A stretch of 64,000 bases of DNA from an uncultured bacterium (lineage in GTDB: Bacteria > Patescibacteriota > Patescibacteriia > Magasanikbacterales > GWA2-37-8): positions 67,275 to 131,274 of the forward strand of contig CALCZC010000025.1 in the NCBI GenBank assembly GCA_937903605.1, given 5' to 3'. Below are positions 27,353 to 45,202 of the stretch, piece by piece (positions within the stretch are counted from its first letter, which is position 1; every line of letters starts with the position of its first letter). The translations under genes and the position numbers were made by a program. Below the pieces are notes generated by a model that saw only the letters and a list, made by a program, of their open reading frames with translations, did not search any database and was not told where the DNA came from.

Positions 27353-27931
27353 ATGAAACTAACTCCCAAAATACAAAAAGCCATCAATTACGCCAGTCGT
27401 TTGCATGCCAAACAGATAAGAAAAGGGGATAAAGACCTGCCTTATGTCAGCCATTGCTTCACCGCGGCTTGGATTCTCAATGAATTTACCAAAGACGAAG
27501 ATATTATCGTGGCCGGATTGCTTCACGATGTACTGGAAGATGTTCCGGGTTATGGTTACGAAAGGATGAAAAAAGATTTTGGCGCGCGAGTGGCGAAAAT
27601 AGTCGCCGGTGTTACCGAAGATAAAGATCCCAATAAAAAAGAGAAAGAGAAGCCGTGGATTGAAAGAAAACAGAAATATCTCGAGCATCTCAAAAAAGAT
27701 AGCCGGGAATCCATGATGGTAAGCGCAGCGGATAAAATACACAATTTGCAGTCCATGCGCGATGCTTATTGCGAACAAGGGGAGAAATTGTGGAAGCATT
27801 TCAATGCTACAAAAGAGGAATCTCTTTGGTTTTATGAGCAAGTTTATAAGATTATTAGGGGGAAATTGAGGAATAAAATTGTGGGGGAATTGGGGAAACA
27901 ATTGGCAGGGGCAAAAAAGGAATTTAAATAA
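27353..27931 (+). CDS. HD-domain small alarmone hydrolase-like protein (paralog 2)
   Basis: …HCFTAAWILNEFTKDEDIIVAGLLHDVLEDV… matches the SpoT-type HD motif. Paralog of 21755-22342. Confidence 0.75.
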   Translation: MKLTPKIQKAINYASRLHAKQIRKGDKDLPYVSHCFTAAWILNEFTKDEDIIVAGLLHDVLEDVPGYGYERMKKDFGARVAKIVAGVTEDKDPNKKEKEKPWIERKQKYLEHLKKDSRESMMVSAADKIHNLQSMRDAYCEQGEKLWKHFNATKEESLWFYEQVYKIIRGKLRNKIVGELGKQLAGAKKEFK

Positions 27932-27935
27932 TTTT

Positions 27936-27968
27936 TAACACTTCAGCCTGTAGGTTGAAGTGTTTGTT
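27936..27968 (+). terminator. family-2 hairpin terminator
   Basis: aacacttcagcctgtaggttgaagtgtttgtttt. Confidence 0.65.
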
Positions 27969-29105: not shown

Positions 29106-29107
29106 TT

Positions 29108-30682
29108 ATGACTAATTTTAATACTTCAAAAGAACAAGAACGTGCCGAGCTTCATCGTGCTATTTGGCAAATTGCTAATGATCTAAGGGGAAGTGTAGAT
29201 GGTTGGGATTTCAAACAATATGTTTTGGGAATTTTGTTTTATAGATTTATTGGTGAAAATCTTTCTAATTATATCAATAAACAACAGAGAAAAGTTAAAG
29301 GGTTTGAAAATTTTGAATATTCAAATTTGAGCGATAAAGAAGCAGAATTGGGTAAAAAAGAAATTGTGTTGGCAAAGGGTTTCTATATTCTTCCAAGTGA
29401 GCTTTTTGTAAATGTTCGTAAAAATGCTAAAAACAATGCAAATTTAAACGAAACTCTTTCAAGAGTTTTTAGTAATATTGAAAATTCTGCAAAAGGTTTT
29501 GATAGTGAGGATGATATAAAAGGGTTATTTGCTGACCTTGATGTCAATTCTCCAAAACTTGGAAATACAGTTGAAAAACGTAATCAAAAATTAGTAAAAC
29601 TTTTAGATGCTATTGGAGATCTTCAATTAGGAAATTACTCTGATAATACTATCGATGCTTTCGGTGATGCTTATGAGTTTTTAATGACCATGTATGCTTC
29701 AAATGCTGGTAAATCTGGAGGTGAATTTTATACACCACAAGAAGTTAGTGAATTACTTGCAAAAATTACGACTGTGGGTAAAAAAGAGGTAAACAAAGTT
29801 TATGATCCATGTTGTGGTTCAGGATCGCTTCTTTTGAAATTTGCCAAAGTTCTTGGTAAAGAAAATGTCCGGCTTGGTTTTTTTGGTCAAGAAATAAATC
29901 TTACCACCTATAATTTGTGTCGTATCAACATGTTTTTACACGATATCAACTATAATCATTTTGATATTGAGCTCGGTGACACACTAACTGATCCCAAACA
30001 TTGGGATGACGAACCTTTTGATGCTATAGTTTCTAACCCGCCTTATTCAATTAATTGGGAAGGGGACGCTAATCCGCTTTTAATAAACGACCCTCGTTTT
30101 TCGCCTGCTGGAGTACTTGCTCCAAAGAGTAAAGCTGATTTGGCTTTCACCATGCACATGCTTTCGTGGCTTTCTACCAGCGGAACGGCGGCGATTGTTG
30201 AATTCCCTGGAGTTCTTTATCGTGGTGGAGCTGAAGCAAAAATCCGCAAATATTTGATTGATAACAATTACGTTGATGCTGTAATACAACTTCCACTAGA
30301 TCTTTTCTTTGGTACAACCATTGCTACTTGTGTTATCGTTTTAAAGAAGAGTAAAAAAGACAATAAGACTTTATTTATCGATGCTTCCGCTGAATTTGTT
30401 CGGGGTGGTAATAAAAATAAATTAAACGAAGAAAATCGTAAAAAGATCCTGAATGCTTTTATAGAAAGAAAAGATATAGAACATTTTGCAAAAATTATAG
30501 ATAACAAAGCTATTGCAGAAAATGATTACAATCTAGCAGTTTCTAGTTATGTGGAGCAAAAAGACACTAGAGAAGCAGTGGACATAAAAGAACTTAATAA
30601 AGAAATTGAGAGAATCGTAAAAAGACAAAGTGAATTAAGGTTGGCAATTGATGAGATTGTGAGGGAGATTGAGGGTAATTAA
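29108..30682 (+). CDS. hsdM: Type I restriction-modification system, DNA methyltransferase subunit M
   Basis: N6-adenine MTase motif IV NPPYS, an AdoMet-binding region (DPCCGSGSLL), and an HsdM N-terminal domain. Confidence 0.9.
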   Translation: MTNFNTSKEQERAELHRAIWQIANDLRGSVDGWDFKQYVLGILFYRFIGENLSNYINKQQRKVKGFENFEYSNLSDKEAELGKKEIVLAKGFYILPSELFVNVRKNAKNNANLNETLSRVFSNIENSAKGFDSEDDIKGLFADLDVNSPKLGNTVEKRNQKLVKLLDAIGDLQLGNYSDNTIDAFGDAYEFLMTMYASNAGKSGGEFYTPQEVSELLAKITTVGKKEVNKVYDPCCGSGSLLLKFAKVLGKENVRLGFFGQEINLTTYNLCRINMFLHDINYNHFDIELGDTLTDPKHWDDEPFDAIVSNPPYSINWEGDANPLLINDPRFSPAGVLAPKSKADLAFTMHMLSWLSTSGTAAIVEFPGVLYRGGAEAKIRKYLIDNNYVDAVIQLPLDLFFGTTIATCVIVLKKSKKDNKTLFIDASAEFVRGGNKNKLNEENRKKILNAFIERKDIEHFAKIIDNKAIAENDYNLAVSSYVEQKDTREAVDIKELNKEIERIVKRQSELRLAIDEIVREIEGN

Positions 30683-30688
30683 ATTAAT

Positions 30689-32890
30689 ATGAATAAATTA
30701 AAAGTTAAATTAGAAAATTGTTACGGAATAAAAAAGCTTGAACACGAGTTTGATTTTTCTAATTTTAAAACTTTTGTTATCTATGCACCCAACGGCGTAA
30801 TGAAGACATCATTTGCAAAAACCCTTAGCGATATTGCAAAAGGAGAAAAACCCTGTGATCAAATAGATGATACTTTAACACCAATTTTTAATTTTTTAAT
30901 TGATGATTCTGAAAATCAAATCCAATCAGAAGAAATATGTGTTATAGAGTCATACAACAAAAAAGCGTTTGATTCTGAAGATAAGATTCTTACGCTTCTA
31001 GCAGACGACGAGACCAAAAAGGAATATTTGGCAATATTTAACGAAATTGAATCACTTAAAAAAGCTTCTCTTCCTGGATTAAAAAAAATATCAGGCAGTA
31101 GTAACTACGAATCTGAAATTACAGAAGCATTTTCTAATCTTGATAAGAAAAATATTTTTGAAATTTTTGAGGCCGTTTTAAATGACATTGAAGCATCGAA
31201 AGATTCATTTGAATTTAAATATAACGATGTTTTTGATAAAGGTGGAAAAGTTAAAAAATTTCTGGCAGATAATTTTGCATTATTAAAAGAGTACATTGAA
31301 AAATACAATGATCTGATTAGTAAGTCTACTTTTTTTGCAAAAAATGCCAACCATATTTTTGGAACAACGGAAGCAAAAATTCTTGGTAAGTCGCTTGAGG
31401 GCGATGAATATTTTACTGCTGGGCATAAATTAGTATTAAAATCACATGGGGATGTATCTGCTAAAAATAAATTATCAGAAATAATTGATGAGGAAATTGA
31501 AAAAGTTTTTAATGATAAAGACCTGAAAGATATTTTTGAAAAAATCGATAATTTGCTCAATACTAATAAAGAACTTCAAGCATTTAAGAAGATTATTGAA
31601 AGAGACAATTCAATTTTATTGAGATTAAATAATTACGATGCTTTTAGAAGAGAGGTGTGGTTTAGTTTTTTAAAACAAATTGAGACAAGCATAAAATCAT
31701 TAGTTGAATTATATAATCAGAAAAAGGTTGATTTAGAAAGGATTATACAAAAAGCAAAGGACAGTCAGTCACAATGGGAAAGTGCTATTAAAGAATTTGA
31801 AAACAGATTTGTTAATAATCCATTTACTCTTGAAATTCAAAATAAGGCGGACGCTGTATTAAACGAAAAGACACCAGTAATTGATTTTAAATTTCAAGGA
31901 AAAGATATCGAAAGAAACAATTTGATAGAAAATGTATTGAGCCAAGGAGAGAGACGAGCTTTTTATATTTTAAATGTTATTTTTGAGATTAAATCTCGGC
32001 AGCTACAAAACAAAAAAACATTATTTATTATTGATGACATAGCGGACTCGTTTGATTACAAAAATAAATATGCAATTATTGAATATTTAAATGATTTATC
32101 CAAAGAAGATAATTTCTATTCAATAATTTTAACGCACAACTTTGACTTTTTTAGGACACTTCAATCAAGAATCTTGCAAGATAATAAGTGGAACTATTCT
32201 TTTATAGCAGAAAAACTAACAGATGAAATTAAACTAATTAAAGCAGGTAGTAAAAATGTTACTGACCCATTTACTAACTGGAAAGCAGGTCTTAATAACA
32301 ACAAAAAACATTTAATTGCTTGTATTCCTTTTGTGCGAAATTTGATTGAATTTAAAGATGGACGAAATGATGGATATAAGCTTCTAACGCACACTCTTCA
32401 TAGAAAATCTTTGGACGAAACTATTAAAGCAACCCCAGATATTTCAATTGCTGATCTACAAGCACCGTTTTCGAGTGTTGTGTCTGGTGTTGCATTTACA
32501 TTTACAGACACAAATGAAAAAATTATTGATGTAATTGAGGAACAGATAGCAGTGATAAAAAATGACAGAAATACCGATTCAATTGTTCTAGAAGATAAAA
32601 TTATTTTTGCTATTGGAATAAGATTGAAAGCAGAAGAATATATGTGGTCGAAGGTTACAAACCAAGATCTAATAAACGGATCGCAAACAGGTAAGCTGTT
32701 TCAGCGATACAAAGATCAATTTAAACAAGATCCGACTCATGTTGAAGCTATAAAAATCTTAGAAAGCGTAAATATAATGACTCCTGAGAACATACACCTG
32801 AACTCTTTTATGTATGAACCAATTTTAGATATAGGCATAGATGAGTTAAAGAGTTTACACGATAAGGTTTGCAATTTAATGAATAATTAG
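30689..32890 (+). CDS. ABC-type (Rad50/SMC-like) ATPase with ~400-aa helical insertion and C-terminal R-x3-E…H module; RloC-like anticodon-nuclease candidate
   Basis: Degenerate Walker A APNGVMKTS. ABC signature LSQGERRAF, Walker B LFIIDDIADSFD and H-loop ILTHNFDFF about 400 aa downstream. C-terminal GIRLKAEEY…(39 aa)…H. Lies between hsdM and hsdS. Confidence 0.5.
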   Translation: MNKLKVKLENCYGIKKLEHEFDFSNFKTFVIYAPNGVMKTSFAKTLSDIAKGEKPCDQIDDTLTPIFNFLIDDSENQIQSEEICVIESYNKKAFDSEDKILTLLADDETKKEYLAIFNEIESLKKASLPGLKKISGSSNYESEITEAFSNLDKKNIFEIFEAVLNDIEASKDSFEFKYNDVFDKGGKVKKFLADNFALLKEYIEKYNDLISKSTFFAKNANHIFGTTEAKILGKSLEGDEYFTAGHKLVLKSHGDVSAKNKLSEIIDEEIEKVFNDKDLKDIFEKIDNLLNTNKELQAFKKIIERDNSILLRLNNYDAFRREVWFSFLKQIETSIKSLVELYNQKKVDLERIIQKAKDSQSQWESAIKEFENRFVNNPFTLEIQNKADAVLNEKTPVIDFKFQGKDIERNNLIENVLSQGERRAFYILNVIFEIKSRQLQNKKTLFIIDDIADSFDYKNKYAIIEYLNDLSKEDNFYSIILTHNFDFFRTLQSRILQDNKWNYSFIAEKLTDEIKLIKAGSKNVTDPFTNWKAGLNNNKKHLIACIPFVRNLIEFKDGRNDGYKLLTHTLHRKSLDETIKATPDISIADLQAPFSSVVSGVAFTFTDTNEKIIDVIEEQIAVIKNDRNTDSIVLEDKIIFAIGIRLKAEEYMWSKVTNQDLINGSQTGKLFQRYKDQFKQDPTHVEAIKILESVNIMTPENIHLNSFMYEPILDIGIDELKSLHDKVCNLMNN

Positions 32891-32891
32891 T

Positions 32892-34010
32892 ATGAAAAAA
32901 CACCAATCAAAAATTGAAAAACTAATTTCAGAACTATGCCCTAATGGTGTGGAGTTTAAAATGCTTGGAGAACTAGAAGATGATAATTTGATTAAACTTG
33001 GACGTGGAAATGTAATTTCAAAAACTGATATTACAAACACACCTGGTGATTATCCGGTTTATTCTTCATCTGCAAATGATGAGGGCGAATTTGGCAGGTA
33101 TGGAAAATATATGTTTGATGATGAAAGAATTACGTGGTCAATCGATGGGGGCGGTAGATTTTTTTATAGACAGTCACATAAATATTCTGTAACAAATGTA
33201 TCGGGGTGGTTAAAAGTAAATGATAATAATGTATTAAATTTACGTTATTTGTATTTTGTTCTGTCAAATGCTTGGTTAACAAAAGTTTTTGATTATACAA
33301 AAAAAGCTCATCCTTCAGTAATTAGAGAAGAGTACAAAATCCCTATTCCACCTCTTGCAATTCAAGAAGAAATTGTAAAAATTCTTAATAGTTTTACGGA
33401 GCTGGAAGCGGAGCTGGAAGCGGAGCTGGAAGTAAGAAAGAAACAGTATGATTATTACCATAAAGAACTTTTTGATTTAAGGGATGATTTCGAATTAAAA
33501 ACACTTGGGGATATTTACGAATTTCAATATGGAGAAGGAAATACTATTCCTACTTCAGGGGATAAATTTCCAGTATATGGAAGTAATGGTATTGTTGGTT
33601 CTCATGAAAAATTCAACAGTGAAGATGCTCCGGTGATTGGACATATTGGAGCTTACGCAGGAATAGTAAATTGGGCTCAAGGAAAACACTTTGTTACATA
33701 CAACGGAGTTATTTGTAAAATCAAGCCAGGAGTTAATCCAAGGTTTGGTTATCATCTGTTGATTCTCCAAGATTTTAGATCAAAAGCAAACGCAGGGTCT
33801 CAACCTTTTGTTTCTTACGACATGCTTAGAAAAACCGAAGTAAAAATACCTCCTATTTTAATACAAAATAAAATTGCAGATGTCCTTGATAAATTTGATG
33901 CACTTGTAAACGATATTTCAGTTGGTTTGCCTGCCGAGCTCAAAGCACGTAGGTCACAATACGAATATTATAGAAATAAACTTCTTGATTTTAAAGAGTT
34001 AGAAAAATAA
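32892..34010 (+). CDS. hsdS: Type I restriction-modification system, specificity subunit S
   Basis: Two target-recognition domains. Central and C-terminal conserved helices (…LAIQEEIVKILNSFTELEAEL… and …LPAELKARRSQYEYYRNKLLDF). Confidence 0.85.
   Translation: MKKHQSKIEKLISELCPNGVEFKMLGELEDDNLIKLGRGNVISKTDITNTPGDYPVYSSSANDEGEFGRYGKYMFDDERITWSIDGGGRFFYRQSHKYSVTNVSGWLKVNDNNVLNLRYLYFVLSNAWLTKVFDYTKKAHPSVIREEYKIPIPPLAIQEEIVKILNSFTELEAELEAELEVRKKQYDYYHKELFDLRDDFELKTLGDIYEFQYGEGNTIPTSGDKFPVYGSNGIVGSHEKFNSEDAPVIGHIGAYAGIVNWAQGKHFVTYNGVICKIKPGVNPRFGYHLLILQDFRSKANAGSQPFVSYDMLRKTEVKIPPILIQNKIADVLDKFDALVNDISVGLPAELKARRSQYEYYRNKLLDFKELEK
33398..33433 (+). repeat. 3× 12-bp in-frame tandem repeat (GGAGCTGGAAGC; EAEL units) in the central conserved region of hsdS
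   Basis: ggagctggaagcggagctggaagcggagctggaagt. Confidence 0.85.
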
Positions 34011-34011
34011 T

Positions 34012-35166
34012 ATGGTTGAATTCGACTCAATCTCTGAATTGTTTGTTAATATAAAAAATGATTTATTATCAGATATTGATAAAAAGAGTATTGCTTTACT
34101 TTATGCTTTTAATTCTACTGGTAAGACAAGGCTTTCTATTGAGTTTGATGAATTAAACGAAAATGATAATGGTTATATTAAAGTACTATCTTATAATGCT
34201 TTTTTAGAAGACCTGTTTGTCTGGGATAATAAGAACCTTGTCTTAAATTTTAGTCCGGATGATTGGCGGATAAGATTTATTCAGGATCAAGGTTTAGAAA
34301 ATAAAATTGTAGAGAATTTTAAATTATTTACTAATTCAAAAGTTGAGCCTATCTTTGAAATTGAAACACATAGAGCAGAGCTCGATAAATTTATATTAGA
34401 CAAATCTAAACTAGGTGGAAATAAGATAGGAAAAATTTCTTTTTTTATTGCTTCAGGAGATGGAAAAAATAAAGATAGCATAAAAATTTCTAAAAGTGAA
34501 GAAAGTATACTGATATGGTCTGTTTTTTATTCTATTTTAGAGATTGTTATAGAAGAATTAAATACACCAGAAGAACATCGTTCAACTAATCTTTTTAATC
34601 ACCTTGAATATATTGTAATAGATGATCCTGTTTCTTCGATCGATGATGAAAGAATTATTTCTTTAGCAGTAAAATTATGTAGGACTATAAAGTTAAATGA
34701 AAATAGAAAAATAAACTTTTTAATAACCACACATCACGCTTTATTTTTTAATGTTTTATTTAATTCTTTCAAAAAATTTCAAAAATCTGATGTAAAAAAA
34801 TATTGTTATATTTTATCAAAAAATGGTAATATTTTTATATTAGAAAGCCAGAAAGATGATTCACCGTTTGCATATCATATTTTAGTTAAAAATAAGCTTA
34901 AAGAAGCAATAAAAAATGGAAGTCTTGAAAAATACCATTTTAATTTATTTAGAACTTTATTAGAAAAAACGGCAAATTTTTTAGGATATACTGATTGGGG
35001 TGAGTGTATTTATAAAGAAGAAAACAGAGAAGAAGTTAAAAGACTTATTAATTTATATAGTCATAGCAAATTATCAGAATTGGAAAGTGGAAGTTTAAGT
35101 AATGCTGATAAAGAGTTGTTTGCAAATACTTTTAATTCTTTTATGGAAGATTTTAAATATAAATAA
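34012..35166 (+). CDS. PrrC-like anticodon nuclease candidate (ABC-type ATPase N-domain + C-terminal R-x3-E…H module)
   Basis: Walker A FNSTGKTRL, Walker B YIVIDDPVSSIDD, H-loop LITTHHALFF. C-terminal FRTLLEK…(37 aa)…YSHSK. Sits between hsdS and hsdR, as in the prr locus. 384 aa (PrrC is about 396). Confidence 0.55.
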   Translation: MVEFDSISELFVNIKNDLLSDIDKKSIALLYAFNSTGKTRLSIEFDELNENDNGYIKVLSYNAFLEDLFVWDNKNLVLNFSPDDWRIRFIQDQGLENKIVENFKLFTNSKVEPIFEIETHRAELDKFILDKSKLGGNKIGKISFFIASGDGKNKDSIKISKSEESILIWSVFYSILEIVIEELNTPEEHRSTNLFNHLEYIVIDDPVSSIDDERIISLAVKLCRTIKLNENRKINFLITTHHALFFNVLFNSFKKFQKSDVKKYCYILSKNGNIFILESQKDDSPFAYHILVKNKLKEAIKNGSLEKYHFNLFRTLLEKTANFLGYTDWGECIYKEENREEVKRLINLYSHSKLSELESGSLSNADKELFANTFNSFMEDFKYK

Positions 35167-35169
35167 ATT

Positions 35170-38100
35170 ATGTCTAAAAATAATAATTACAATTTAGTTG
35201 CAGAAAATACACAAAGCACGGTTGTCGCCGAGTATGTTTCTGGTACAAAAAGATTATCACAATATCAAAGTGAAGATGCTTTAGAAAAAGCTTTTATTAA
35301 ACAATTAGAATCTCAGGCGTATGAATATATTGCGATTAAATCCGAAAATGATTTGATTCTTAATCTTCGCAAACAACTTGAAAAGTTAAATAGTTATACT
35401 TTTTCTGATGCAGAATGGGATAGATTTTTTACGAGCGAAATAGCAAATCCAAATCAGAGTATTGAAGAAAAAACTGCAACTATACAAGAAAATGAAGTAA
35501 AAAATTTATATGGTGATGATGGAAAATTTAAAAGAAATATAACTCTTTTAGATAAGAAAAATATTCACAACAACAGTCTGCAAGTCATCAATCAGTACGT
35601 CACCGAAGACGGACAAAGATCGAATCGTTATGATGTGACGGTATTGGTAAATGGATTACCGCTTATACACATTGAATTAAAACGTCGTGGAGTTGCTATT
35701 CAAGAAGCATTTAACCAAATAAACAGATATCAAAGAGAGAGTTTTTGGGCTTCAAGTGGTCTTTTTGAATATGTGCAATTGTTTGTAATATCTAATGGAA
35801 CACATACAAAATATTACAGCAATACAACAAGATCACAACACGTCAAAGAATCTCAAGAGGGTTCTAAAAATAAAGGAAAGAAGACCAGTAATAGTTTTGA
35901 ATTTACAAGTTGGTGGGCTGATGCAACAAATAGACCAATCACTGATTTGATGGACTTTGCAAAAACATTTTTTGCAAAGCATGCGATTTTGAATATTCTG
36001 ACGAAGTATTGCGTATTTACGACCGATCGCCTTTTGCTTGTTATGCGACCGTATCAAATCGTAGCAACAGAAAGAATTTTAAATCGCATTGAAGTTAGTA
36101 CAAATTATAAAAAACTTGGCACCACCGAAGCGGGTGGCTATATTTGGCACACCACAGGGTCAGGAAAGACTCTGACGAGTTTTAAAACTGCTCAATTGGC
36201 AAGTAAATTGTCATATGTAGATAAAGTATTGTTTGTGGTAGATCGTAAGGATTTGGACTATCAAACAATGAAAGAATATGACAAGTTTGAAAAAGGTGCG
36301 GCGAACAGCAATACGAGCACTGCGGTTTTAAAGAAACAACTGGAGGATTCAAATTCTAGAATTATTATCACAACAATTCAAAAACTTGATAGATTTATTG
36401 CCAAAAATTCTAGTCACACTATTTTTGATGGTCATATCGTAATTATTTTTGACGAGTGTCATCGTTCGCAATTTGGTGAAATGCATTCGAGTATTATAAA
36501 ATCATTTAATAATTATCACTTATTTGGATTTACTGGAACACCAATATTTTCTAAGAATGCTTCAGCTGGTGGCAGACCTGATTTCAAGACCACAGAGCAG
36601 GCTTTTGGTGAAAAATTACACACTTATACAATAGTTGATGCTATTTCTGATAAGAATGTTTTACCGTTTAAAGTTGATTATGTTTCAACTGTTAAAGAAG
36701 CAGAAAATATTGAAGACGCTCAAGTAAAAGATATTGACCGTGAAGCGGTATTATCCGCTCCAGAACGATTAGAAAATATTGTTCGCTATATTCGTGAACA
36801 TTTTGATCAGAAAACTAAAAGAAATAGTTTTTATAAAATTCAAGATAGAAGATTAGCGGGGTTTAATTCTGTTTTTGCAGTTTCTTCTATTGAGGTAGCA
36901 AAGAAATATTATCTTGAATTTAAAAGACAGTTGGCAGATGAACCGAGTGATAAAAAATTAAAAGTCGCCACAATATTTAGTTTTGGAGTAAATGACGAGG
37001 ATATAGACGGAATGATTGATGAAAATTCTGAAGATACAAGTGGTTTAGACGTAAGTTCAAGAGAGTTTCTTGAAAGTGCTATCAAAGATTATAATAAAAT
37101 GTTTGGAACGTCTTATGACACTTCATCTGAAAAATTTCAAAATTACTATAAAGATGTTAGTGAAAAAGTAAAAAAACGAGAAATAGACATCTTAATTGTG
37201 GTTAATATGTTTTTAACTGGTTTTGATGCTACTACTTTAAATACTTTGTGGGTAGATAAGAATTTGAGATTGCATGGATTACTTCAGGCATATTCAAGAA
37301 CTAACCGTATATTAAATAGTATTAAAACTTTTGGAAATATTGTTTGTTTTAGAAACCTAGAAAAAGCTACTAATGAAGCGATTGCTTTATTTGGAGATAA
37401 AGAAGCCGGTGGAATCGTATTACTTAAAGCATATGAGGATTACTACAATGGGTATAAAGAAGGTAATAAAGAAGTTCGAGGATACAAAAGTTTTGTTAAT
37501 GAACTACTTGCAAAGTTTCCAATCGGAGAAAGAATTATTGGAGAACAAAATCAAAAAGATTTTATAAAATTATACGGAGCAATTTTGAGAGTCAAAAATA
37601 TTTTAGCTACTTTCGATGAATTTAATGGTAATGAAATATTATCTGATAGAGATGTGCAAGATTATCATAGTATGTATATTGATTTATACAATGAATTCCG
37701 CAAAGCCGATGATTCTGAGAAAGAAAACATTAATGACGATATTGTTTTTGAAATGGAACTTATCAAACAAGTTGAAATTAACATTGATTATGTTCTTGGT
37801 CTTATAAAAATATATCATGAGGATCATGTAAAAAATAAAGAACTTTTGATAGATATTAATAAAGCAATTGATTCGAGTGTGGAATTGCGTAATAAAAAAG
37901 ATTTGATCAATCAGTTTATTACTTCCCTTGATGTTCATTCTATCATTGATGAAGATTGGCAAAAGTTTGTGGAAGAGAAAAAAGTCCAAGAATTAGAACA
38001 AATTATTGAAACTGAAAATCTTGATCATGAAGCTACATATAAATTTATAAAAAACTCTTTTAGAGATGGTAATATACCGATTACAGGAACCGCTATAAGT

Positions 38101-38226
38101 GATATTTTGCCACCAGTATCAATGTTTTCCCCAAACGGAGAAAGAACTAAAAAAAGAGAAGGTGTTTTGGATAAATTAACAAGATATTTTGAGAGGTTTT
38201 TTGATATTAGTAAAAGAGATTTATAG
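35170..38226 (+). CDS. hsdR: Type I restriction enzyme, R subunit (helicase/endonuclease)
   Basis: N-terminal PD-(D/E)xK (…LIHIELKRRG). SF2 motifs TTGSGKT (I), FDECHRSQ (II) and further helicase motifs. 1018 aa. Confidence 0.9.
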   Translation: MSKNNNYNLVAENTQSTVVAEYVSGTKRLSQYQSEDALEKAFIKQLESQAYEYIAIKSENDLILNLRKQLEKLNSYTFSDAEWDRFFTSEIANPNQSIEEKTATIQENEVKNLYGDDGKFKRNITLLDKKNIHNNSLQVINQYVTEDGQRSNRYDVTVLVNGLPLIHIELKRRGVAIQEAFNQINRYQRESFWASSGLFEYVQLFVISNGTHTKYYSNTTRSQHVKESQEGSKNKGKKTSNSFEFTSWWADATNRPITDLMDFAKTFFAKHAILNILTKYCVFTTDRLLLVMRPYQIVATERILNRIEVSTNYKKLGTTEAGGYIWHTTGSGKTLTSFKTAQLASKLSYVDKVLFVVDRKDLDYQTMKEYDKFEKGAANSNTSTAVLKKQLEDSNSRIIITTIQKLDRFIAKNSSHTIFDGHIVIIFDECHRSQFGEMHSSIIKSFNNYHLFGFTGTPIFSKNASAGGRPDFKTTEQAFGEKLHTYTIVDAISDKNVLPFKVDYVSTVKEAENIEDAQVKDIDREAVLSAPERLENIVRYIREHFDQKTKRNSFYKIQDRRLAGFNSVFAVSSIEVAKKYYLEFKRQLADEPSDKKLKVATIFSFGVNDEDIDGMIDENSEDTSGLDVSSREFLESAIKDYNKMFGTSYDTSSEKFQNYYKDVSEKVKKREIDILIVVNMFLTGFDATTLNTLWVDKNLRLHGLLQAYSRTNRILNSIKTFGNIVCFRNLEKATNEAIALFGDKEAGGIVLLKAYEDYYNGYKEGNKEVRGYKSFVNELLAKFPIGERIIGEQNQKDFIKLYGAILRVKNILATFDEFNGNEILSDRDVQDYHSMYIDLYNEFRKADDSEKENINDDIVFEMELIKQVEINIDYVLGLIKIYHEDHVKNKELLIDINKAIDSSVELRNKKDLINQFITSLDVHSIIDEDWQKFVEEKKVQELEQIIETENLDHEATYKFIKNSFRDGNIPITGTAISDILPPVSMFSPNGERTKKREGVLDKLTRYFERFFDISKRDL

Positions 38227-38232
38227 GTTTGT

Positions 38233-38946
38233 ATGAATATTTTAGGAATACACACTGAATTTATTGTTAATTCAACTCTATTAATAGGAGCTGTGGCTTA
38301 TCTATCACACTTTTTTGGTAAAGTCATAACCGACTGCAAACCAATAGTTGATGATCGTAAATGGGATGCCGAACTTTCCGGAGTTTATTATATTGGAATG
38401 TATGTTTTTTTGCCACTTACACTTTTATTAATCATTCCGCAATCCATATTGATGAATTTTCTTGATTCAATTGGTTTAAATAGTTTTGTTGCTGTTTTAT
38501 TACAGTTTATCCTTTGCTCTTATCTTTCTGTGTTTCAAGTAATTAAGTCACGGTTTTTTTACAGTGTGCCAACAGGACAAATAAAGTGGGTTGAAAAACG
38601 AATTGTAGAATATATAAAAAAGAAACGAAATTTTAAATTAAGTATTATTTTGGTGTTACTTGCACAAATACAATTATATTATTCTAGCAATGTTAGATTA
38701 TTTATTCTTGGTTTAATATTTTGTTTGATCTTTTATTTTTTACGTGCTGCCATATTTTCTTATGATAAAAATGTAAAACTAAATAAATTTAATATTTATT
38801 TTATAGATACAACGATTGCACCTTTACTTAATTATGATTTGGTTAAAATTAACGATGATCATATTAAGTTAAAAAAAGACGGTAAATTTATGATTATAAA
38901 TAAAAATACTATTTTACGTCTTGAGTGTTTAGAAAAAGAAAAATAA
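38233..38946 (+). CDS. hypothetical membrane protein
   Basis: 237 aa with about five TM helices. Very AT-rich. Confidence 0.4.
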   Translation: MNILGIHTEFIVNSTLLIGAVAYLSHFFGKVITDCKPIVDDRKWDAELSGVYYIGMYVFLPLTLLLIIPQSILMNFLDSIGLNSFVAVLLQFILCSYLSVFQVIKSRFFYSVPTGQIKWVEKRIVEYIKKKRNFKLSIILVLLAQIQLYYSSNVRLFILGLIFCLIFYFLRAAIFSYDKNVKLNKFNIYFIDTTIAPLLNYDLVKINDDHIKLKKDGKFMIINKNTILRLECLEKEK

Positions 38947-38953
38947 TAAAAAT

Positions 38954-39592
38954 ATGAATTTAAATGATTATACCAAAAGATTTGAAAAATGTTATCAAAT
39001 TTTTTCCGAAACTTTTTTAAGTTTTTTTGTTTGGAAGGGATTACAAGATAAAGATTTTGAAAAGACATATTCAGAAAATAATTATTTTTGGTCCGCCATT
39101 CTTCGTTCGCTTGAAAATGATTGGCTTACTAATCTTGCAAAAATATATGAAGAATCAAGATATAGTAAAGAAAATGAAGTAATTTCTGTGTATGCTCTTG
39201 TATCATACCAGGCTGACCTTGATCGAGCAGTCAAAGTCAGACAGATTTTAGAAGTAAATGCAGATATTATTAAAAATATTCAAATTTTACGTCATAATCA
39301 GTTGGCGCACAATAATGCTGAGCATTTACTAAAGCCGGAGACGTTGTTAGAGAAATTTCCGATTGAATATAATAAAGTAGAACAACTTGTGTTGTTAACA
39401 GATGAAGTTTTATCAAATTTACATCCTGAAACGGGTCACGGATATATTTATAAAATGCTTTCTGAAGATGCTGTCAACGACAGTAAAAATATTATAAAAA
39501 AATTACAATATTATTCAAAACTTCACCATAATCATTCAGAAAAATTTAGGTGTGGAGAAGTAAATGATTGGAAATTTCCACCAGATTTATAA
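38954..39592 (+). CDS. HEPN-like (R-x4-6-H) Abi-type hypothetical protein
   Basis: …ILRHNQLAHNNAEH… fits the HEPN Rx4-6H motif. Immediately downstream of hsdR. Confidence 0.4.
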   Translation: MNLNDYTKRFEKCYQIFSETFLSFFVWKGLQDKDFEKTYSENNYFWSAILRSLENDWLTNLAKIYEESRYSKENEVISVYALVSYQADLDRAVKVRQILEVNADIIKNIQILRHNQLAHNNAEHLLKPETLLEKFPIEYNKVEQLVLLTDEVLSNLHPETGHGYIYKMLSEDAVNDSKNIIKKLQYYSKLHHNHSEKFRCGEVNDWKFPPDL

Positions 39593-39603
39593 TTTAAATA
39601 AAT

Positions 39604-40179
39604 ATGCAAACACCGATTTTAATAAAAGAACATGTGAGTATAACTCAATTTATTAATTTTTGGTCAAGTTATTATATTTATGCAAAAATTGAAAATTATT
39701 ATATAAAAAATATAAATAAAAAAGTATTTGATAGTGAAACGTTAAACGCTTTATTTATGTGGAAGAATGGATCTGTGTTAAGTAAAAAAAAGAAAGATTC
39801 TCTGAATAAAAATATTATAAGAAAAATTGAAATAATAAATTCTCTTAAAAATAAATTTGATTTCGATCTGTTTAAAAAGGAATTTAAAAATGTGTCTGTA
39901 ATATGGAAAATTTTTCTTCTAAACTTAATTAAACCGAAAACATACCCCATATTTGATCAACATGTTTTTAGAGCGATGAAATTTATTAAATTTTCTAAAA
40001 TTGAAGAAGTTCCAAATAATGACAGAGAAAAAGAAGAAGTATATTTTGATGAATACATAGATTTTTTTAATAAAATTAAAGCTGAATTACCAAGAGATTT
40101 TGATAATAAAAAAATTGATGAAGCACTTTGGTCTTTTGGAAAATTTCTTAAGAGTAATTACAAAACAATTTTATGTTAG
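39604..40179 (+). CDS. hypothetical protein
   Basis: 191-aa Lys-rich ORF. No motif recognised. Confidence 0.35.
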   Translation: MQTPILIKEHVSITQFINFWSSYYIYAKIENYYIKNINKKVFDSETLNALFMWKNGSVLSKKKKDSLNKNIIRKIEIINSLKNKFDFDLFKKEFKNVSVIWKIFLLNLIKPKTYPIFDQHVFRAMKFIKFSKIEEVPNNDREKEEVYFDEYIDFFNKIKAELPRDFDNKKIDEALWSFGKFLKSNYKTILC

Positions 40180-40946
40180 GTGCTATTGCCGGTGACATTA
40201 TAGGTTCCGCTTTTGAATGGAACAACAAAAAAACAACGGACTTCTCTTTGTTTTCTGAAAAATCTATTTTTACCGATGACACCATAATGACTGTGGTGGT
40301 GATGGAAAGTTTGCTTACAAATAAAGATTATTTTTTTAAATTCAAAGATATAGGTCGCAGGTATCCGGATGCCGGATGGGGAGATGTATTTAGACAGTGG
40401 CTTTTTTCTCGACAAGAAGAACCCAACGATAGCTTTGGAAACGGCGCGGCAATGAGAGTAAGCCCTATGGGTTTCTTTTTTGACGACCTTGATTCTGTTT
40501 TGGAAGAAACGGCAATATGTACAAATATATCCCACGACCACGTAGAAGCTCGCAAAGGCGCACAAGCTGTGGCTTCTGCCGTATTTTTGGCTAGGACCGG
40601 TAAAACCAAGCAAGAGATTAAAGAATACGTTGAAAAGAAGTTTGGATATGATTTAAGCAGAAAATTGGATGATATTCGGCCGAATTACAGGTATGATGTA
40701 AGTTGTCAGGGGTCCGTACCAGAAGCTATTATCGCTTTTTTGGAATCAGAAAATTTTGAGGATGCTATCCGAAAAGCGGTTTCTTTGGGAGGGGATAGTG
40801 ATACTATCGCTTGTATAACCGGTGGCGTTGCCGAAGCTTTTTATAAAGGTGTACCAATTGATATAATGGAAAAGGTTAGAGTTTTATTACCGCCAGAATT
40901 GTTGGAAATAGTAGATAAATTTTACGAATATATTAATAATAAATAA
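40173..40946 (+). CDS. ADP-ribosylglycohydrolase (DraG/ARH family)
   Basis: N-terminal MLGAIAGDIIGS and C-terminal GGDSDTIACITGG. Both are hallmark ARH motifs. Confidence 0.85.
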   Translation: MLGAIAGDIIGSAFEWNNKKTTDFSLFSEKSIFTDDTIMTVVVMESLLTNKDYFFKFKDIGRRYPDAGWGDVFRQWLFSRQEEPNDSFGNGAAMRVSPMGFFFDDLDSVLEETAICTNISHDHVEARKGAQAVASAVFLARTGKTKQEIKEYVEKKFGYDLSRKLDDIRPNYRYDVSCQGSVPEAIIAFLESENFEDAIRKAVSLGGDSDTIACITGGVAEAFYKGVPIDIMEKVRVLLPPELLEIVDKFYEYINNK

Positions 40947-40947
40947 T

Positions 40948-41745
40948 ATGTCCGAATACTACACCCCCAAACGTACAAAAAATATCTTTGATCCAAAATC
41001 CAAAGAGCCTTTTAAAATATCTCGTTCCAAACTGGACCTATTTTTAAACTGCCCTCGCTGTTTTTATTTGGATCGTCGTCTCGGTGTTGGTCAACCGCCC
41101 GGATATCCTTTCAACCTCAACTCTGCCGTTGATGCCTTGCTCAAAAAAGAATTTGATATTCATCGCGCGAAAAACACTACCCATCCGCTCATGAAAACAT
41201 ACGGATTGGACCTTGTTCCGCTTGCCCATGACAAAATGAACGAATGGCGAGAGAATTTTGTCGGCGTGCAATATTTGCACGAGCCTACCAATTTGATTAT
41301 CACCGGCGCGGTTGATGATCTATGGGTGGATGCTCCCACCCCCTCTACCTCCTCTTCCGCCAAAGGCGGACAGGCGGGCAGGGGGAGAGAAAAAATTTAT
41401 ATTGTTGACTACAAGTCTACGAGTAAAAGCACGGAAGTGAACTTGGATGCTGACTGGCAAATAGGATATAAGAGACAGATGGAGGTTTATCAATGGTTGA
41501 TGCGTAAAAATGGCTTTCAGGTTTCTGATACCGGTTATTTTGTCTATTGCAACGGCCGGACCGACCGAGAGGCCTTTGACAGTAAATTGGAATTTGATGT
41601 AAAGATTATTCCCTACATTGGCGATGATAGTTGGGTGGAAAAAGCCATCGTTGCCGCGCACAAATGTCTGATGAGCGACAAAATCCCCAAAGCAGGGGAG
41701 GGTTGCGATTTTTGTCGTTACGTCGATGAAGCGAGTAAATTTTAG
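40948..41745 (+). CDS. Cas4-like / RecB-family PD-(D/E)xK nuclease with Fe-S cysteines
   Basis: N-terminal …SRSKLDLFLNCPRCFYL…, core IVDYKST…QMEVYQWL, and C-terminal …GEGCDFCRY. It carries a low-complexity GC-rich insert (APTPSTSSSAKGGQAGRGRE). Confidence 0.65.
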   Translation: MSEYYTPKRTKNIFDPKSKEPFKISRSKLDLFLNCPRCFYLDRRLGVGQPPGYPFNLNSAVDALLKKEFDIHRAKNTTHPLMKTYGLDLVPLAHDKMNEWRENFVGVQYLHEPTNLIITGAVDDLWVDAPTPSTSSSAKGGQAGRGREKIYIVDYKSTSKSTEVNLDADWQIGYKRQMEVYQWLMRKNGFQVSDTGYFVYCNGRTDREAFDSKLEFDVKIIPYIGDDSWVEKAIVAAHKCLMSDKIPKAGEGCDFCRYVDEASKF

Positions 41746-41753
41746 ATTTTAGA

Positions 41754-42107
41754 TTGCTGATTTTAGATTTAAATATGGAAGACGATCCATCTATACAACA
41801 AAGTATAAAATTTTTAAAAATAACACTGATTATATTTAAGATATTTCTTTTTGTGTTAGTTTTATTTATTGGATATGTAGTTATTAATATTAAAGGTTTG
41901 AATAAAAATAGATCAACTATAGATAATTCCTGGAATTATTTTCAAGACAATACAAACGCTACTCCAATACAGAAAAAAACAGAAACGCCCATTATTGAAG
42001 AAAAAACAAAACAACTAAGTGACGAAGAGCTAAAAGCTATTTATCAAGCTCAAGAAAATGAAATTAAGGAAGCGGAAGAAAGGGCTAGACAAAAATATAA
42101 TTTTTAA
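41754..42107 (+). CDS. hypothetical protein (TM helix + coiled-coil)
   Basis: 117-aa ORF. No motif. Confidence 0.35.
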   Translation: MLILDLNMEDDPSIQQSIKFLKITLIIFKIFLFVLVLFIGYVVINIKGLNKNRSTIDNSWNYFQDNTNATPIQKKTETPIIEEKTKQLSDEELKAIYQAQENEIKEAEERARQKYNF

Positions 42108-42110
42108 TTT

Positions 42111-42713
42111 ATGTTCAAACAAGTTATTGTCATCCATGGCGGAGACAGTTACAACACTTACAAAGAATATCTTTCCAATTTAAAAAAGATAAATTTAAAT
42201 TTTGAAAAGATGTTTCGAAAAGGTTGGAAAGATGGTTTAGATAAATCGCTTGGTAAAAACTTTCAAGTGATAATGCCAAGCATGCCCAACAAATCCAATG
42301 CTCGTTTTGAAGAATGGAAAATTTGGTTTGAGAAATTGTTCCCGTATTTAAACAAAGAAGTTATTTTAATAGGACATTCGCTTGGTGCCAGTTTTTTGCT
42401 CCGATATTTATCGGAGAATAAGTTCCCCAAAAAAATTAAAGCGACTTTTTTAGTCTCTGCTCCTTACGAGCAAACAGGCATGAAGACGGAATTGGGCGAC
42501 AGTTTCCGTTTTGGCAAAGATATGAGTTTGCTTATTAAGCAATCGCCAAGATTGGTTTTTTATCACAGCAAAGACGACAAAATCGTGCCTTATGCGGATT
42601 TTAAGAAGTTTCAAGATCTTTTCCCCGGCGCTTGTTTTGTAGAATTTGCAGATAGGGGACATTTCAATCAAGAAAATTTCCCAGAAATAGTTAAAGATTT
42701 GAAAGTACTTTAG
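42111..42713 (+). CDS. alpha/beta hydrolase (YdeN/RBBP9-like serine hydrolase)
   Basis: G-x-S-x-G nucleophile elbow IGHSLGASFL. About 200 aa. Confidence 0.6.
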   Translation: MFKQVIVIHGGDSYNTYKEYLSNLKKINLNFEKMFRKGWKDGLDKSLGKNFQVIMPSMPNKSNARFEEWKIWFEKLFPYLNKEVILIGHSLGASFLLRYLSENKFPKKIKATFLVSAPYEQTGMKTELGDSFRFGKDMSLLIKQSPRLVFYHSKDDKIVPYADFKKFQDLFPGACFVEFADRGHFNQENFPEIVKDLKVL

Positions 42714-42717
42714 ATTT

Positions 42718-43194
42718 ATGAGTGTTGTTACCTTTAAACCTCACGACAGAAAAGACATTCCCTTGCGAGTAAAATGGTTGAATAATAAAAAAGCCAATGT
42801 TTGCGCTATTGATAATCCGGAAAGCGGAACGACTTTAGAAAAAGAAACGAAGTGGTTTGATGAATATGAAAAAAATCCAACCAAAAAATTCTTTACCATT
42901 TATAGCGATGAAACACCGATTGGGTTGATGGGGCTATCTAATATTAATTTAAATACTAAAACCGCCAAATTATTTATTTTGATAGGGGAGGATGAATATC
43001 GTGGAAAAGGAATTGGAAAAACATCGCTCAAATATATAATTGATTATGCTTTTAATGATATAGGACTCTATTCTATTTTTTTGGAAGTGAAGAGAATTAA
43101 TTATCCAGCAATCAAACTTTATGAATCATTTGGTTTTGTAGATAACGGACCAGGAGATAAAGAATTTAGATATATGGTGTTTGATAAAAAATAA
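42718..43194 (+). CDS. GNAT family N-acetyltransferase
   Basis: Acetyl-CoA binding R/Q-xx-G-x-G/A (YRGKGIGKT). Confidence 0.7.
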   Translation: MSVVTFKPHDRKDIPLRVKWLNNKKANVCAIDNPESGTTLEKETKWFDEYEKNPTKKFFTIYSDETPIGLMGLSNINLNTKTAKLFILIGEDEYRGKGIGKTSLKYIIDYAFNDIGLYSIFLEVKRINYPAIKLYESFGFVDNGPGDKEFRYMVFDKK

Positions 43195-43208
43195 AATATT
43201 AAAATTAT

Positions 43209-43901
43209 ATGTCCAAACCTCGTCGTGTTGCTATCTTTGACATTGACGGAACGATATTTCGCTCCAGTCTTTTGATTGAGATAACCGAAGCCCTGATAGA
43301 TGAAGGTATATTTTCTCCCAATACCAGAAATATCTACATGAAACCCTACAAAAACTGGTCCAATCGCCGGGATACTTATGAGAAATACATTGATTCGGTG
43401 GTAGTGGCTTTCTTGAAAAACATCAAAGGTGTTGATTATGATATTTTTACCAAAATTGTCAGAAGGGTGATAAATGCGAAAAAAGACCGGGTTTATCGTT
43501 ATACTCGCGATTTGGTACATGACCTAAAAAAGAAAGGATTTTTCTTGTTGGCAATTTCTCAATCACCCAAAGAACTCGTGCAAGATTTCGGTTATAAGAT
43601 GGGGTTTGATAAAGTTTACGGTCAATATTACGAAGTTGGTAAAAACAAGAAATTTACCGGTAAAGTTTTATCATTAGAGATGACCGGCAACAAAGCCAAT
43701 TTACTCAACCGCGCGTTGGAGAGAAACAATATTACTTTGAAAGGATCTGTTGGAGTTGGGGATAGTGAAAGTGACATTGCTTTTTTGAAAATGGTGGATA
43801 ATCCGATTTGTTTCAATCCCAACAACAAACTTTACCAACATGCCAAAAAACATGGGTGGGCTGTGGTGGTGGAGAGGAAAGACGTAACATATAAGATATA
43901 A
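43209..43901 (+). CDS. HAD-superfamily hydrolase (phosphoserine-phosphatase-like, subfamily IB)
   Basis: Motif I VAIFDIDGTI. Motif IV GVGDSESDIAFLK. Confidence 0.75.
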   Translation: MSKPRRVAIFDIDGTIFRSSLLIEITEALIDEGIFSPNTRNIYMKPYKNWSNRRDTYEKYIDSVVVAFLKNIKGVDYDIFTKIVRRVINAKKDRVYRYTRDLVHDLKKKGFFLLAISQSPKELVQDFGYKMGFDKVYGQYYEVGKNKKFTGKVLSLEMTGNKANLLNRALERNNITLKGSVGVGDSESDIAFLKMVDNPICFNPNNKLYQHAKKHGWAVVVERKDVTYKI

Positions 43902-44063
43902 AAAATACTGGATATTGAATATTGAATATTGCGAAAATAAATAAATAATATGATGTCTATGATTATAATAGGAATAGTATTAATTTTGGTGATAGTTGGA
44001 GTGGTGAGTTGGTATTTTGTAGATTGAAAGATTACAAGATTTAAAGATTACAAGATTAACAAA

Positions 44064-44176
44064 ATGTCATCCCCGCGAAGGCGGGGATCCAGGACATTTC
44101 GCCACTGGACCTGCCTGTCCGGTAGGCAGGTTCCCGCTCGTCCCAAAGGGACCCCTTCGGGGGAGGCGGGAATGAC
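44064..44176. repeat. composite family-1 nested-hairpin element
   Basis: tGTCATccccgcgaaggcggggatccagg … gacctgcctgtccggtaggcaggt … cgtcccaaagggaccccttcgggggaggcgggaATGACAag. Confidence 0.7.
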
Positions 44177-44245
44177 AAGTCAACGTAAATTGATAACTAA
44201 AAATTAATTAAAAATTGTAAAATTATAAAATTAAAAATTGCCATT

Positions 44246-44650: not shown

Positions 44651-45202
44651 ATGCGTAAAGCAAAAAAAACCGACGAAGAAATAATTCACCAAAATCCGTG
44701 GTGGACTTACAAACACGACAAATTTGAAAAAGACGACGGCACTGTCGGTGATTATTTTTATGCGCAAACAAATAACAGTGCGATGATCGTGCCTGTGCTT
44801 GATGACGGGAGAGTGATATTAGTCAGTCAATATCGCTATTTACAAGATCGAGAAAGTATCGAATTTCCTTGCGGACAATTACAAGAAGACGAAGCGCCCT
44901 CAGAAGGTGCCAAGCGTGAATTGTTTGAAGAAACCGGTTATAAAGGCGGGGATTTGATCAAAGTAGGTAATTTTTGCGGAATAAAAGGTATGGTCAAAGA
45001 CGATACTCATCTATTCCTCGGGACCGATCTCAAACAAATAGATGAACCGCAAAAGGAAGATGATAGCGGGAAGATGGAAGTGATTTATCGTCGAGTGGAT
45101 GAATTGGAACAAATGATAATAGACGGTAAAATCTGGGATGGGCAAACGTTGGCTGCTTGGGCGCTAGTGCGCGATCATCTGCACAAATTAATTTCCGGAT
45201 AA
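44651..45202 (+). CDS. NUDIX hydrolase
   Basis: Nudix box GAKRELFEETGY. Confidence 0.8.
   Translation: MRKAKKTDEEIIHQNPWWTYKHDKFEKDDGTVGDYFYAQTNNSAMIVPVLDDGRVILVSQYRYLQDRESIEFPCGQLQEDEAPSEGAKRELFEETGYKGGDLIKVGNFCGIKGMVKDDTHLFLGTDLKQIDEPQKEDDSGKMEVIYRRVDELEQMIIDGKIWDGQTLAAWALVRDHLHKLISG

Follow-up and report, generated by a model that had tools for sequence, protein, structure and literature searches.

Insertion of a defense island probably explains the adjacency of an ADP-ribosylglycohydrolase gene and a Cas4-like nuclease gene in a Patescibacteria chromosome

Two adjacent genes on the + strand of a 64,000-nucleotide stretch of DNA (here called the window) from an uncultured member of the Patescibacteria, or candidate phyla radiation (CPR; order Magasanikbacterales, contig CALCZC010000025.1), encode an ADP-ribosylglycohydrolase (ARH; positions 40173 to 40946) and a Cas4-like nuclease (NUC; positions 40948 to 41745). 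The original prediction read them as a pairing that was not a described system and might form a toxin/antitoxin-like or DNA-modification-sensing module. A literature search did find no description of an ARH plus Cas4-like system; the dedicated pair itself is mostly unsupported, since NUC occurs alone throughout the phylum and the closest relative breaks the adjacency. ARH and NUC as a dedicated two-gene module are thus not supported. We favor instead, with moderate confidence, the view that they are separate genes that became neighbors through insertion of a defense island into the chromosome, with ARH as a mobile accessory gene on the border of the island. An island of roughly 12.8 kb with low G+C content at third codon positions (GC3), spanning 28176 to 40946, would have been inserted between the HD_4 gene and NUC. 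ARH would be its last gene, traveling with the upstream gene for a 191-aa protein and not with NUC. NUC may act on DNA ends, resecting or degrading them during repair or recombination together with SF1 helicases encoded by separate genes, and might also help to clear restricted DNA.

Both open reading frames (ORFs) were confirmed on the + strand. The ARH start overlaps the 191-aa ORF (39604 to 40179) by 7 nt (40173 to 40179), as originally predicted, and the NUC start codon lies 1 nt past the ARH stop. Tight spacing is no peculiarity of the pair: all 16 genes between 28176 and 43901 are codirectional and equally packed, with spacings of −7 to 14 nt. Nor does the pair lie at the end of the array, where it had been placed: four more genes continue the same tight run after NUC (41754 to 43901, +; Pfam Ser_hydrolase, Acetyltransf_1, and HAD), encoding a 117-aa membrane protein, a serine hydrolase, a GNAT protein, and a HAD hydrolase, and this stretch between NUC and HAD is variable. 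The 1-nt spacing and the probable cotranscription of ARH and NUC would reflect compact codirectional packing and not a dedicated two-component mechanism. Scans for promoters and terminators gave no useful signal in DNA so rich in AT (95 promoter-like sites, with 83 ± 11 expected).

NUC is a phylum-wide stand-alone gene without a conserved partner. Its relatives (62 to 89% identity) were found in at least 581 Patescibacteria species genomes, and searching 1.84 billion cluster representatives with a profile recovered 437 NUC clusters (50% identity) at E ≤ 1e-30. The best 120 of at least 8,000 matches are about 250 aa long and 64 to 89% identical and come from many CPR classes; the close homologues all derive from CPR metagenome-assembled genomes, and NUC is among the most strongly conserved genes of Patescibacteria. 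Nine contigs, drawn from several samples, carry the window's own locus. A phage origin of NUC was rejected, as there was no match among 50,697 phage records and the IMG/VR matches look like CPR fragments.

Gene context was compared across 94 other NUC loci, of which 80 are species loci (L005 to L084) and 14 are viral-collection loci (L189 to L202). Co-occurrence of the two families, which the original prediction had proposed as a check, is rare at these loci: ARH lies within 6 kb of NUC in only one, and 92 have neither ARH nor a Macro gene. An ARH profile run over 754 kb around NUC identified the single locus L051 and nothing in the 14 viral-collection loci. No neighbor family is conserved (the largest occurs at 5 of about 75 species loci). 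In almost every species NUC adjoins housekeeping or repair genes that have no relation to it, and the immediate neighbors encode PIF1/UvrD-type helicases, UDG, alkylation repair enzymes, tRNA synthetases, cyclophilins, and pseudouridine synthases, none of them an ARH. Even orthologues that are 86 to 89% identical to NUC have different neighbors on both sides, with a Type III restriction-modification (R-M) system upstream in L090 and an HNH-like gene (judged from its sequence) downstream in L179.

R-M genes recur beside NUC on one side. R-M-like genes are upstream of and codirectional with NUC at 12 of the 94 loci and downstream at none (413 kb of upstream and 389 kb of downstream sequence; P = 3e-4 to 7e-4 for side alone). 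The R-M genes are of various types, stand one to four mostly uncharacterized genes away from NUC, and are distributed over at least seven clades of the NUC tree. Such a pattern points to either a hotspot shared by the whole phylum or a general connection of R-M with solo Cas4. ARH conforms to it as a variable gene that separates R-M from NUC.

The window contains an R-M-centered defense island between the core genes HD_4 (27353 to 27931, +) and NUC, recognized from its known and candidate defense genes, its atypical GC3, and flanks that are neighbors or fused in other genomes. GC3 is 0.14 to 0.24 in the island genes, including the 191-aa ORF, 0.33 in ARH, 0.48 in NUC, and about 0.40 in core genes. 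HD_4 adjoins NUC at loci L036 and L067, a fusion of the two makes up the P0364 cluster, and HAD lies within 1.2 kb of NUC in four other species and forms a conserved right anchor in L085, L087, L088, and L178. The genes downstream of NUC are of housekeeping type (serine hydrolase, GNAT, HAD, HIT, Nudix, and a VirD4-like ATPase), and HD_4, NUC, HAD, and the VirD4-like gene belong to a loosely syntenic core block.

The closest relatives of ARH show what moves with it. Two loci from independent sequencing runs, L088 and L089, contain a 1,358-bp stretch equivalent to positions 39593 to 40950 of the window (the 191-aa ORF plus ARH), with 95.3% nucleotide identity to L088, while flanking genes are 83 to 86% identical. 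There, the cassette follows a 95-nt 5′ fragment of the serine hydrolase gene and directly precedes HAD; it takes the place of GNAT and of the remainder of the serine hydrolase gene, and the locus lacks a nuclease. Because L088 and L089 carry this stretch at another site without a nuclease, the moving unit is the 191-aa ORF plus ARH rather than ARH plus NUC.

More widely, the patchy distribution of its homologues, with temperate phages among the carriers, places ARH in a subfamily that spreads horizontally. Close CPR relatives number about six (72 to 93% identity); the next homologues, from Nitrospirota, Chloroflexi, Bacillota, Omnitrophica, and other groups, are only about 60% identical. Homologues in temperate phages of Porphyromonas and Bacteroides (42 to 51% identity) lie at the end of an early/accessory block without a nuclease. 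Among ARH loci outside the clade (non-CPR or viral), a nuclease is near 1 of 89 and absent from the other 88; these 80 metagenome loci (45 to 62% identity) and nine IMG/VR loci had no canonical NUC nearby and no PD-(D/E)xK family among their frequent neighbors. The finding that would have made the pair unremarkable, genes that are never neighbors elsewhere and an ordinary housekeeping nuclease, largely describes these data; the adjacency is kept only in a single CPR clade, in which the nuclease type changes.

Other ARH homologues have settings of their own. Twelve loci from gut and other metagenomes (L131, L137, L138, L143 to L145, L147, L150 to L152, L155, and L166) share a trio of upstream genes, the nearest encoding DUF5960, and nine of them share a gene for a very large protein that lies downstream and is read from the other strand; neighboring genes include some for large proteins with G5, F5/8 type C, and fucosidase domains. 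At four loci from human gut metagenomes (L132, L141, L142, and L146), two Macro domain genes lie 2 to 3.5 kb upstream of the ARH homologue, which suggests a small group of genes for ADP-ribose processing.

The assignment of ARH as an ADP-ribosylglycohydrolase held. The compact 257-aa protein, which has the N terminus MLGAIAGDIIGS, matches PF03747 at E = 4.4e-35 (122.2 bits against a cutoff of 26.2; residues 1 to 224 on profile positions 3 to 279 of 287) and phrog_6572 at E = 6e-53, and it contains the predicted GGDSDTIA motif. Its closest solved relatives are MJ1187 (1t5j) and Lmo0067 (8za7), with whose TDDT and GGDTD motifs its FTDDT (residues 33 to 37) and GGDSDT (residues 206 to 211) align. 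The metal-binding role of the TDDT and GGDSDT motifs is established for ARH3 and DraG. As these catalytic motifs are intact, ARH should hydrolyze some ADP-ribosyl linkage. It resembles MJ1187, Lmo0067, ARH3, DraG, and Tri1 in its PF03747 fold and in both di-metal motifs, but it is much shorter and has no cognate ADP-ribosyltransferase among its annotated neighbors (genes between 26.8 and 45.2 kb, scanned with Pfam, NCBIfam, and PADLOC). Identity as DraG (TIGR02662; 41.3 bits against an equivalog cutoff of 337) or Tri1 (NF041672; 39.4 bits against 490) was rejected.

The Cas4/RecB-like identity of the second protein was likewise upheld, by a Pfam match above cutoff and a RecB-like fold, with Cas4 models scoring weakly. 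NUC (265 aa) is a CPR-wide solo Cas4-like, RecB-family PD-(D/E)xK nuclease with a cysteine cluster, matching PF12705 (PDDEXK_1) at E = 5.7e-10 (40 bits against a cutoff of 22). Its motifs include C35-P-R-C38, D154-Y-K-S-T, and C253-D-F-C256. An alignment of 54 to 56 homologues has a mean column identity of 56% and invariant residues C35, C38, C240, C253, C256, D123, D124, D154-Y-K156, Q177, and Y181. By homology, D123/D124, D154-x-K156, and Q177-x3-Y181 form the predicted metal-dependent active site, and the five invariant cysteines, spaced C35-X2-C38 ... C240-X12-C253-X2-C256, probably hold an Fe-S or metal cluster; the four-cysteine pattern of Cas4 and AddB is C ... CX2CX5C. The AlphaFold2 model (pLDDT 85) matched the AdnA nuclease domain in Foldseek at E = 2e-5 and lambda exonuclease, the Cas4 protein Pcal_0546, RecE, MGME1, and EXO5 at E = 4e-4 to 3e-3, with TM-scores of 0.35 to 0.48 and 10 to 16% identity to PDB folds. 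NUC has no recognizable ligand-sensor domain. Past the GAVDDLW motif, a loop modeled with low AlphaFold2 confidence carries a low-complexity insertion, APTPSTSSSAKGGQAGRGRE, at residues from about 128 to 148; different insertions occur at this point in some homologues.

Cas4 proper was not recovered, as NUC scores 24.9 against a cutoff of 65 for TIGR00372 and PADLOC Cas4 models reach just E = 4e-6 to 3e-4. CRISPR-associated Cas4 was rejected on these subcutoff scores, with no cas gene annotated between 26.8 and 45.2 kb and no CRISPR-like repeat array in the 64-kb window. DUF2779 was rejected as a sequence relative of NUC, BLASTP having given nothing significant.

The 191-aa protein encoded at 39604 to 40179 (+; GC3 0.15) belongs to an uncharacterized all-alpha family that is scattered in archaea, Bacteroidota, Desulfobacterota, and CPR; none of its 87 homologues has a Pfam domain. 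W20, W53-K54, D118, R123, D172, and G179 are invariant in the family, and the likewise invariant motifs WKNG and PIFDQH hint at enzymatic activity or nucleic acid binding. The AlphaFold2 model (pLDDT 95.9) is all-alpha and without a significant PDB or BFVD fold match, and on these grounds an ADP-ribosyltransferase was rejected. A DNA glycosylase was rejected as well: YPIFDQHVFRA is reminiscent of the HhH-GPD motif of EndoIII/MutY, Foldseek gave MutY homologues at E values of only about 5 to 6 with a TM-score of 0.36, and a PDB profile search returned nothing relevant.

Several observations weigh against the reading of the adjacency as a product of island insertion only. In lineages with this ARH (72 to 81% identity), DNA homology spans ARH and resumes exactly at the start of HAD, and the stretch between differs: it comprises canonical NUC, the membrane protein, serine hydrolase, and GNAT in the window; a NUC that is 54 to 56% identical to all canonical ones plus four genes in L087; a single 232-aa PDDEXK_1 protein of 22 to 24% identity in L178; a membrane protein and a DUF2779/Cas4 fusion in L085; and nothing in L088. 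In four of the five lineages the interval begins with or contains a Cas4-like nuclease, each of a different kind. The assembly behind L085 is GCA_026396515.1, and that behind L087 is JGI 3300005077. Locus L051 (Moraniibacteriota) has the order ResIII, reverse transcriptase, NUC, FtsK-like gene, and ARH-OGFr_N fusion, and in L148 a DUF2779 ORF ends 5 nt before ARH; both associations are independent of the window's ARH clade. The start of a MacroD/YmdB-type Macro gene lies 1 nt past NUC in L003/L005, and fusions of NUC with Nudix (a 46-member cluster) and TIR (7 members) exist. ARH or Macro lies within two genes of NUC at 2 of the 80 species loci, with roughly 0.4 expected as a rough estimate that was not computed. 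Were NUC and ADP-ribose enzymes wholly unrelated, one would not expect such recurrences, but the counts are small, amounting to few events in a very large family.

These observations are the basis of a possible, though in our judgment doubtful, facultative link in which a Cas4-like nuclease acts together with an enzyme that removes ADP-ribose, namely, ARH in the window and Macro or Nudix at other loci. The hydrolase might remove the adduct from ADP-ribosylated DNA that the nuclease then resects; alternatively, the two might form a defense module with a nuclease governed by an NAD-derived signal that the hydrolase switches off. Such a link would account for the filling of the post-ARH position by four nonorthologous Cas4-like nucleases in related lineages and for the independent proximity, in opposite gene order, in L051 and L148. 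It would also accommodate the order NUC, Macro, UvrD-RNase_T helicase with a SMODS gene upstream in L003/L005, the occurrence of the NUC-Nudix and TIR-NUC fusions in several samples, and the precedent of DarG3, the ARH-fold antitoxin of the DNA ADP-ribosyltransferase system DarHTG (PMC13069673). Against it stand the scarcity of ARH and Macro at NUC loci, the near absence of nucleases from ARH loci outside the clade, and the nearest relative, which has ARH without a nuclease. No ADP-ribosyltransferase is present among the annotated neighbors, the Nudix domain of the fusion has only a weak, MutT1-like best match and is not assignable to ADP-ribose, and NUC lacks a recognizable sensor. The recurrence within the clade could come from a variable ARH-HAD stretch combined with a general tendency of Cas4-like nucleases to end R-M islands. 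Extended to the whole family, the same evidence would mean that the CPR solo Cas4-like nucleases are tied to NAD/ADP-ribose chemistry, with ARH, Macro, Nudix, and TIR repeatedly recruited beside or fused to them and the post-ARH slot refilled with nonorthologous nucleases; we regard this tie as unlikely.

Two other groupings assign ARH a partner. If the 191-aa gene and ARH are a functional unit, such as an enzyme or binder with its ADP-ribose eraser in a mobile two-gene cassette, NUC is a bystander. The 7-nt overlap and the common transfer to a different site agree with this, as do the 98% identity of the 191-aa protein between the window and L088/L089 (the next relatives share just 66%), the confident fold and invariant polar residues of its family, and a defense-like context in Lutibacter. 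Set against these, other family members lack an adjacent ARH (L176 and L177; Lutibacter and an archaeon), and what precedes ARH elsewhere in the clade (L087, L178, and L085) is an unrelated ORF of 143 or 175 aa, for which no homology to the 191-aa ORF was found. GC3 differs sharply between the two genes (0.15 and 0.33), and the protein is all-alpha without an ADP-ribosyltransferase fold. A Porphyromonas phage has the 7-nt overlap at its ARH start too, although the gene upstream there is unrelated, and the overlap may simply follow from the conserved M-L-G codons ATG-TTA-GG. Such a unit seems to us rather improbable. A toxin-antitoxin-like module with NUC as toxin and ARH as antidote, which the original prediction had raised, is highly improbable. 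The tight spacing and shared strand agree with it, and antitoxins with an ARH or Macro fold are known from DarTG-type systems, but it was rejected on gene distribution: the supposed toxin is very highly conserved and is carried alone by hundreds of species; ARH occurs without a nuclease in the closest relative, in other phyla, and in phages; and neither DarT nor another ADP-ribosyltransferase is among the neighbors. Insertion of an R-M-centered island beside a stand-alone nuclease gene remains our preferred explanation, and the facultative link between ADP-ribose enzymes and the nuclease, unlikely as we hold it to be, is the sole part of the pairing worth following up.

Some NUC loci with ADP-ribose-related neighbors are also noteworthy for their gene content. 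The ARH-OGFr_N fusion at L051 (7562 to 8818) is 418 aa long. At L003/L005 (4530 to 7270), SMODS (a CBASS-type nucleotidyltransferase) and a 160-aa ORF precede NUC, and Macro and then a UvrD-RNase_T fusion follow it. Among the clusters P0366, P0333, and P0364 and the sequence P0395, the NUC family is joined to GYF plus TIR, Nudix, HD_4, and DUF2779, the first two in several independent samples.

NUC is most readily compared with solo Cas4, which is overrepresented in CPR and DPANN and for which a still undefined role in repair or defense was noted (Hudaiberdiev et al. 2017, PMC5704561); that study noted occasional adjacency of solo Cas4 and R-M genes and treated PF12705 briefly. NUC is similarly a stand-alone gene outside a CRISPR-cas locus, with a RecB-like PD-(D/E)xK core, QxxxY, and a cysteine cluster, and genes of this kind are overrepresented in small-genome CPR bacteria; the R-M adjacency is here quantified (12 of 94, always upstream). 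It differs in matching PF12705 and not PF01930 or COG1468, in having five invariant cysteines (CX2C ... C-X12-C-X2-C) instead of the canonical pattern, and in having an extra, highly conserved N-terminal helical region, and an ARH neighbor is not a described feature. With the nuclease domains of AdnA, AddB, and RecB and with lambda exonuclease, RecE, EXO5, and MGME1, NUC shares the predicted fold and the catalytic residues D...D/ExK...QxxxY. It has no fused helicase domain, and a helicase partnership is suggested solely by the occasional PIF1/UvrD neighbors. A literature search combining Patescibacteria, RecBCD, and AddAB returned nothing.

ARH-fold erasers of DNA ADP-ribosylation are known from DarG3 of DarHTG, and an ADP-ribose eraser in a defense island setting is the likeness to DarTG/DarHTG (PMC13069673); the partner proposed for the window's ARH is a nuclease, whereas that in DarTG is a transferase. 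A DarTG/DarHTG-like system was rejected because no DarT (DUF4433), ART domain, or DarH helicase was found among the neighbors between 26.8 and 45.2 kb with Pfam, NCBIfam, or PADLOC. The upstream genes resemble hsd-prrC Type I R-M loci, with the array hsdM-hsdS-prrC-hsdR plus PDC-S02, PDC-S46, and AbiU2; neither ARH nor a Cas4-like nuclease is a known part of loci of this type.

The left core flank of the island, HD_4, encodes a RelA/SpoT-type HD hydrolase-like protein (PF13328, E = 1.5e-21) with a GC3 of 0.44, like core genes, and is followed on its 3′ side by a terminator-like hairpin (27937 to 27964) and a 244-nt gap. The island genes are all on the + strand. The first is the candidate defense gene PDC-S02 (28176 to 29105; GC3 0.24), a NucS_C/YhcG-like PD-(D/E)xK protein (PADLOC PDLC04799, E = 3e-153; Pfam NucS_C and YhcG_C). 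The Type I R-M methyltransferase HsdM (29108 to 30682; PF02384, E = 2.6e-115; PADLOC MTase_I, E = 1.6e-132) is followed by the candidate defense ATPase PDC-S46 within the hsd operon (30689 to 32890; PADLOC PDLC05023, E = 6.7e-231; weak SMC_N match) and by the specificity subunit HsdS (32892 to 34010; PF01420, E = 1.5e-36; PADLOC Specificity_I, E = 6e-87). Next come a PrrC-like anticodon nuclease homologue, also within the operon (34012 to 35166; PADLOC PrrC, E = 2.6e-100; AAA_13; GC3 0.14), and the restriction subunit HsdR (35170 to 38226; HSDR_N, SWI2_SNF2, T1R_D3-like, and EcoR124_C, with E values down to 2e-65). The Type I R-M operon (28176 to 38226) thus has PDC-S02 before hsdM, PDC-S46 between hsdM and hsdS, and the PrrC homologue between hsdS and hsdR, with gaps of 1 to 6 nt. 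Between it and the 191-aa gene lie a 237-aa protein, judged by eye to be multipass membrane, without a Pfam, NCBIfam, PADLOC, or PHROG match (38233 to 38946; GC3 0.18), and an AbiU2-type HEPN protein (38954 to 39592; PF18734, E = 4.2e-12).

Farther to the right, 3.7 kb downstream of ARH, is a Nudix hydrolase gene (44651 to 45202, +) of the NudE/AdpP (ADP-sugar/ADP-ribose pyrophosphatase-like) type; NudE is its best NCBIfam match at 68 bits, below the cutoff of 169, and Pfam NUDIX was matched on the identical locus L173. The HAD-HIT spacer (43902 to 44245, +; 344 nt) contains a G+C-rich structured element, especially at 44050 to 44200, with several perfect hairpins, a minimum free energy (MFE) of −66 kcal/mol, and a z-score of −4.8 against shuffled sequences. 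An Rfam search of this spacer at 43.9 to 44.2 kb gave nothing significant, and the element may be a small RNA of a new kind or a terminator cluster. Just left of HD_4, positions 26254 to 26349 on the − strand match the Rfam DUF3800-V RNA (RF02964) at 72.9 bits (gathering score, 37.4; E = 1.3e-14).

In place of the two-gene conflict system that had been proposed, the window would then hold two known enzyme families joined by ordinary defense island insertion. The position of NUC as the last codirectional gene behind varied R-M islands in about one species in eight suggests that it marks a phylum-wide integration hotspot or serves as a generic restriction helper. The small but recurrent links of the NUC family to ARH, Macro, Nudix, and TIR offer a testable lead on the function of solo Cas4. 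If the tie to ADP-ribose were true, it would imply either an undescribed pathway that recognizes and resects ADP-ribosylated DNA or a nuclease effector under an ADP-ribose-derived signal, in bacteria that are without most known defense and repair machinery.

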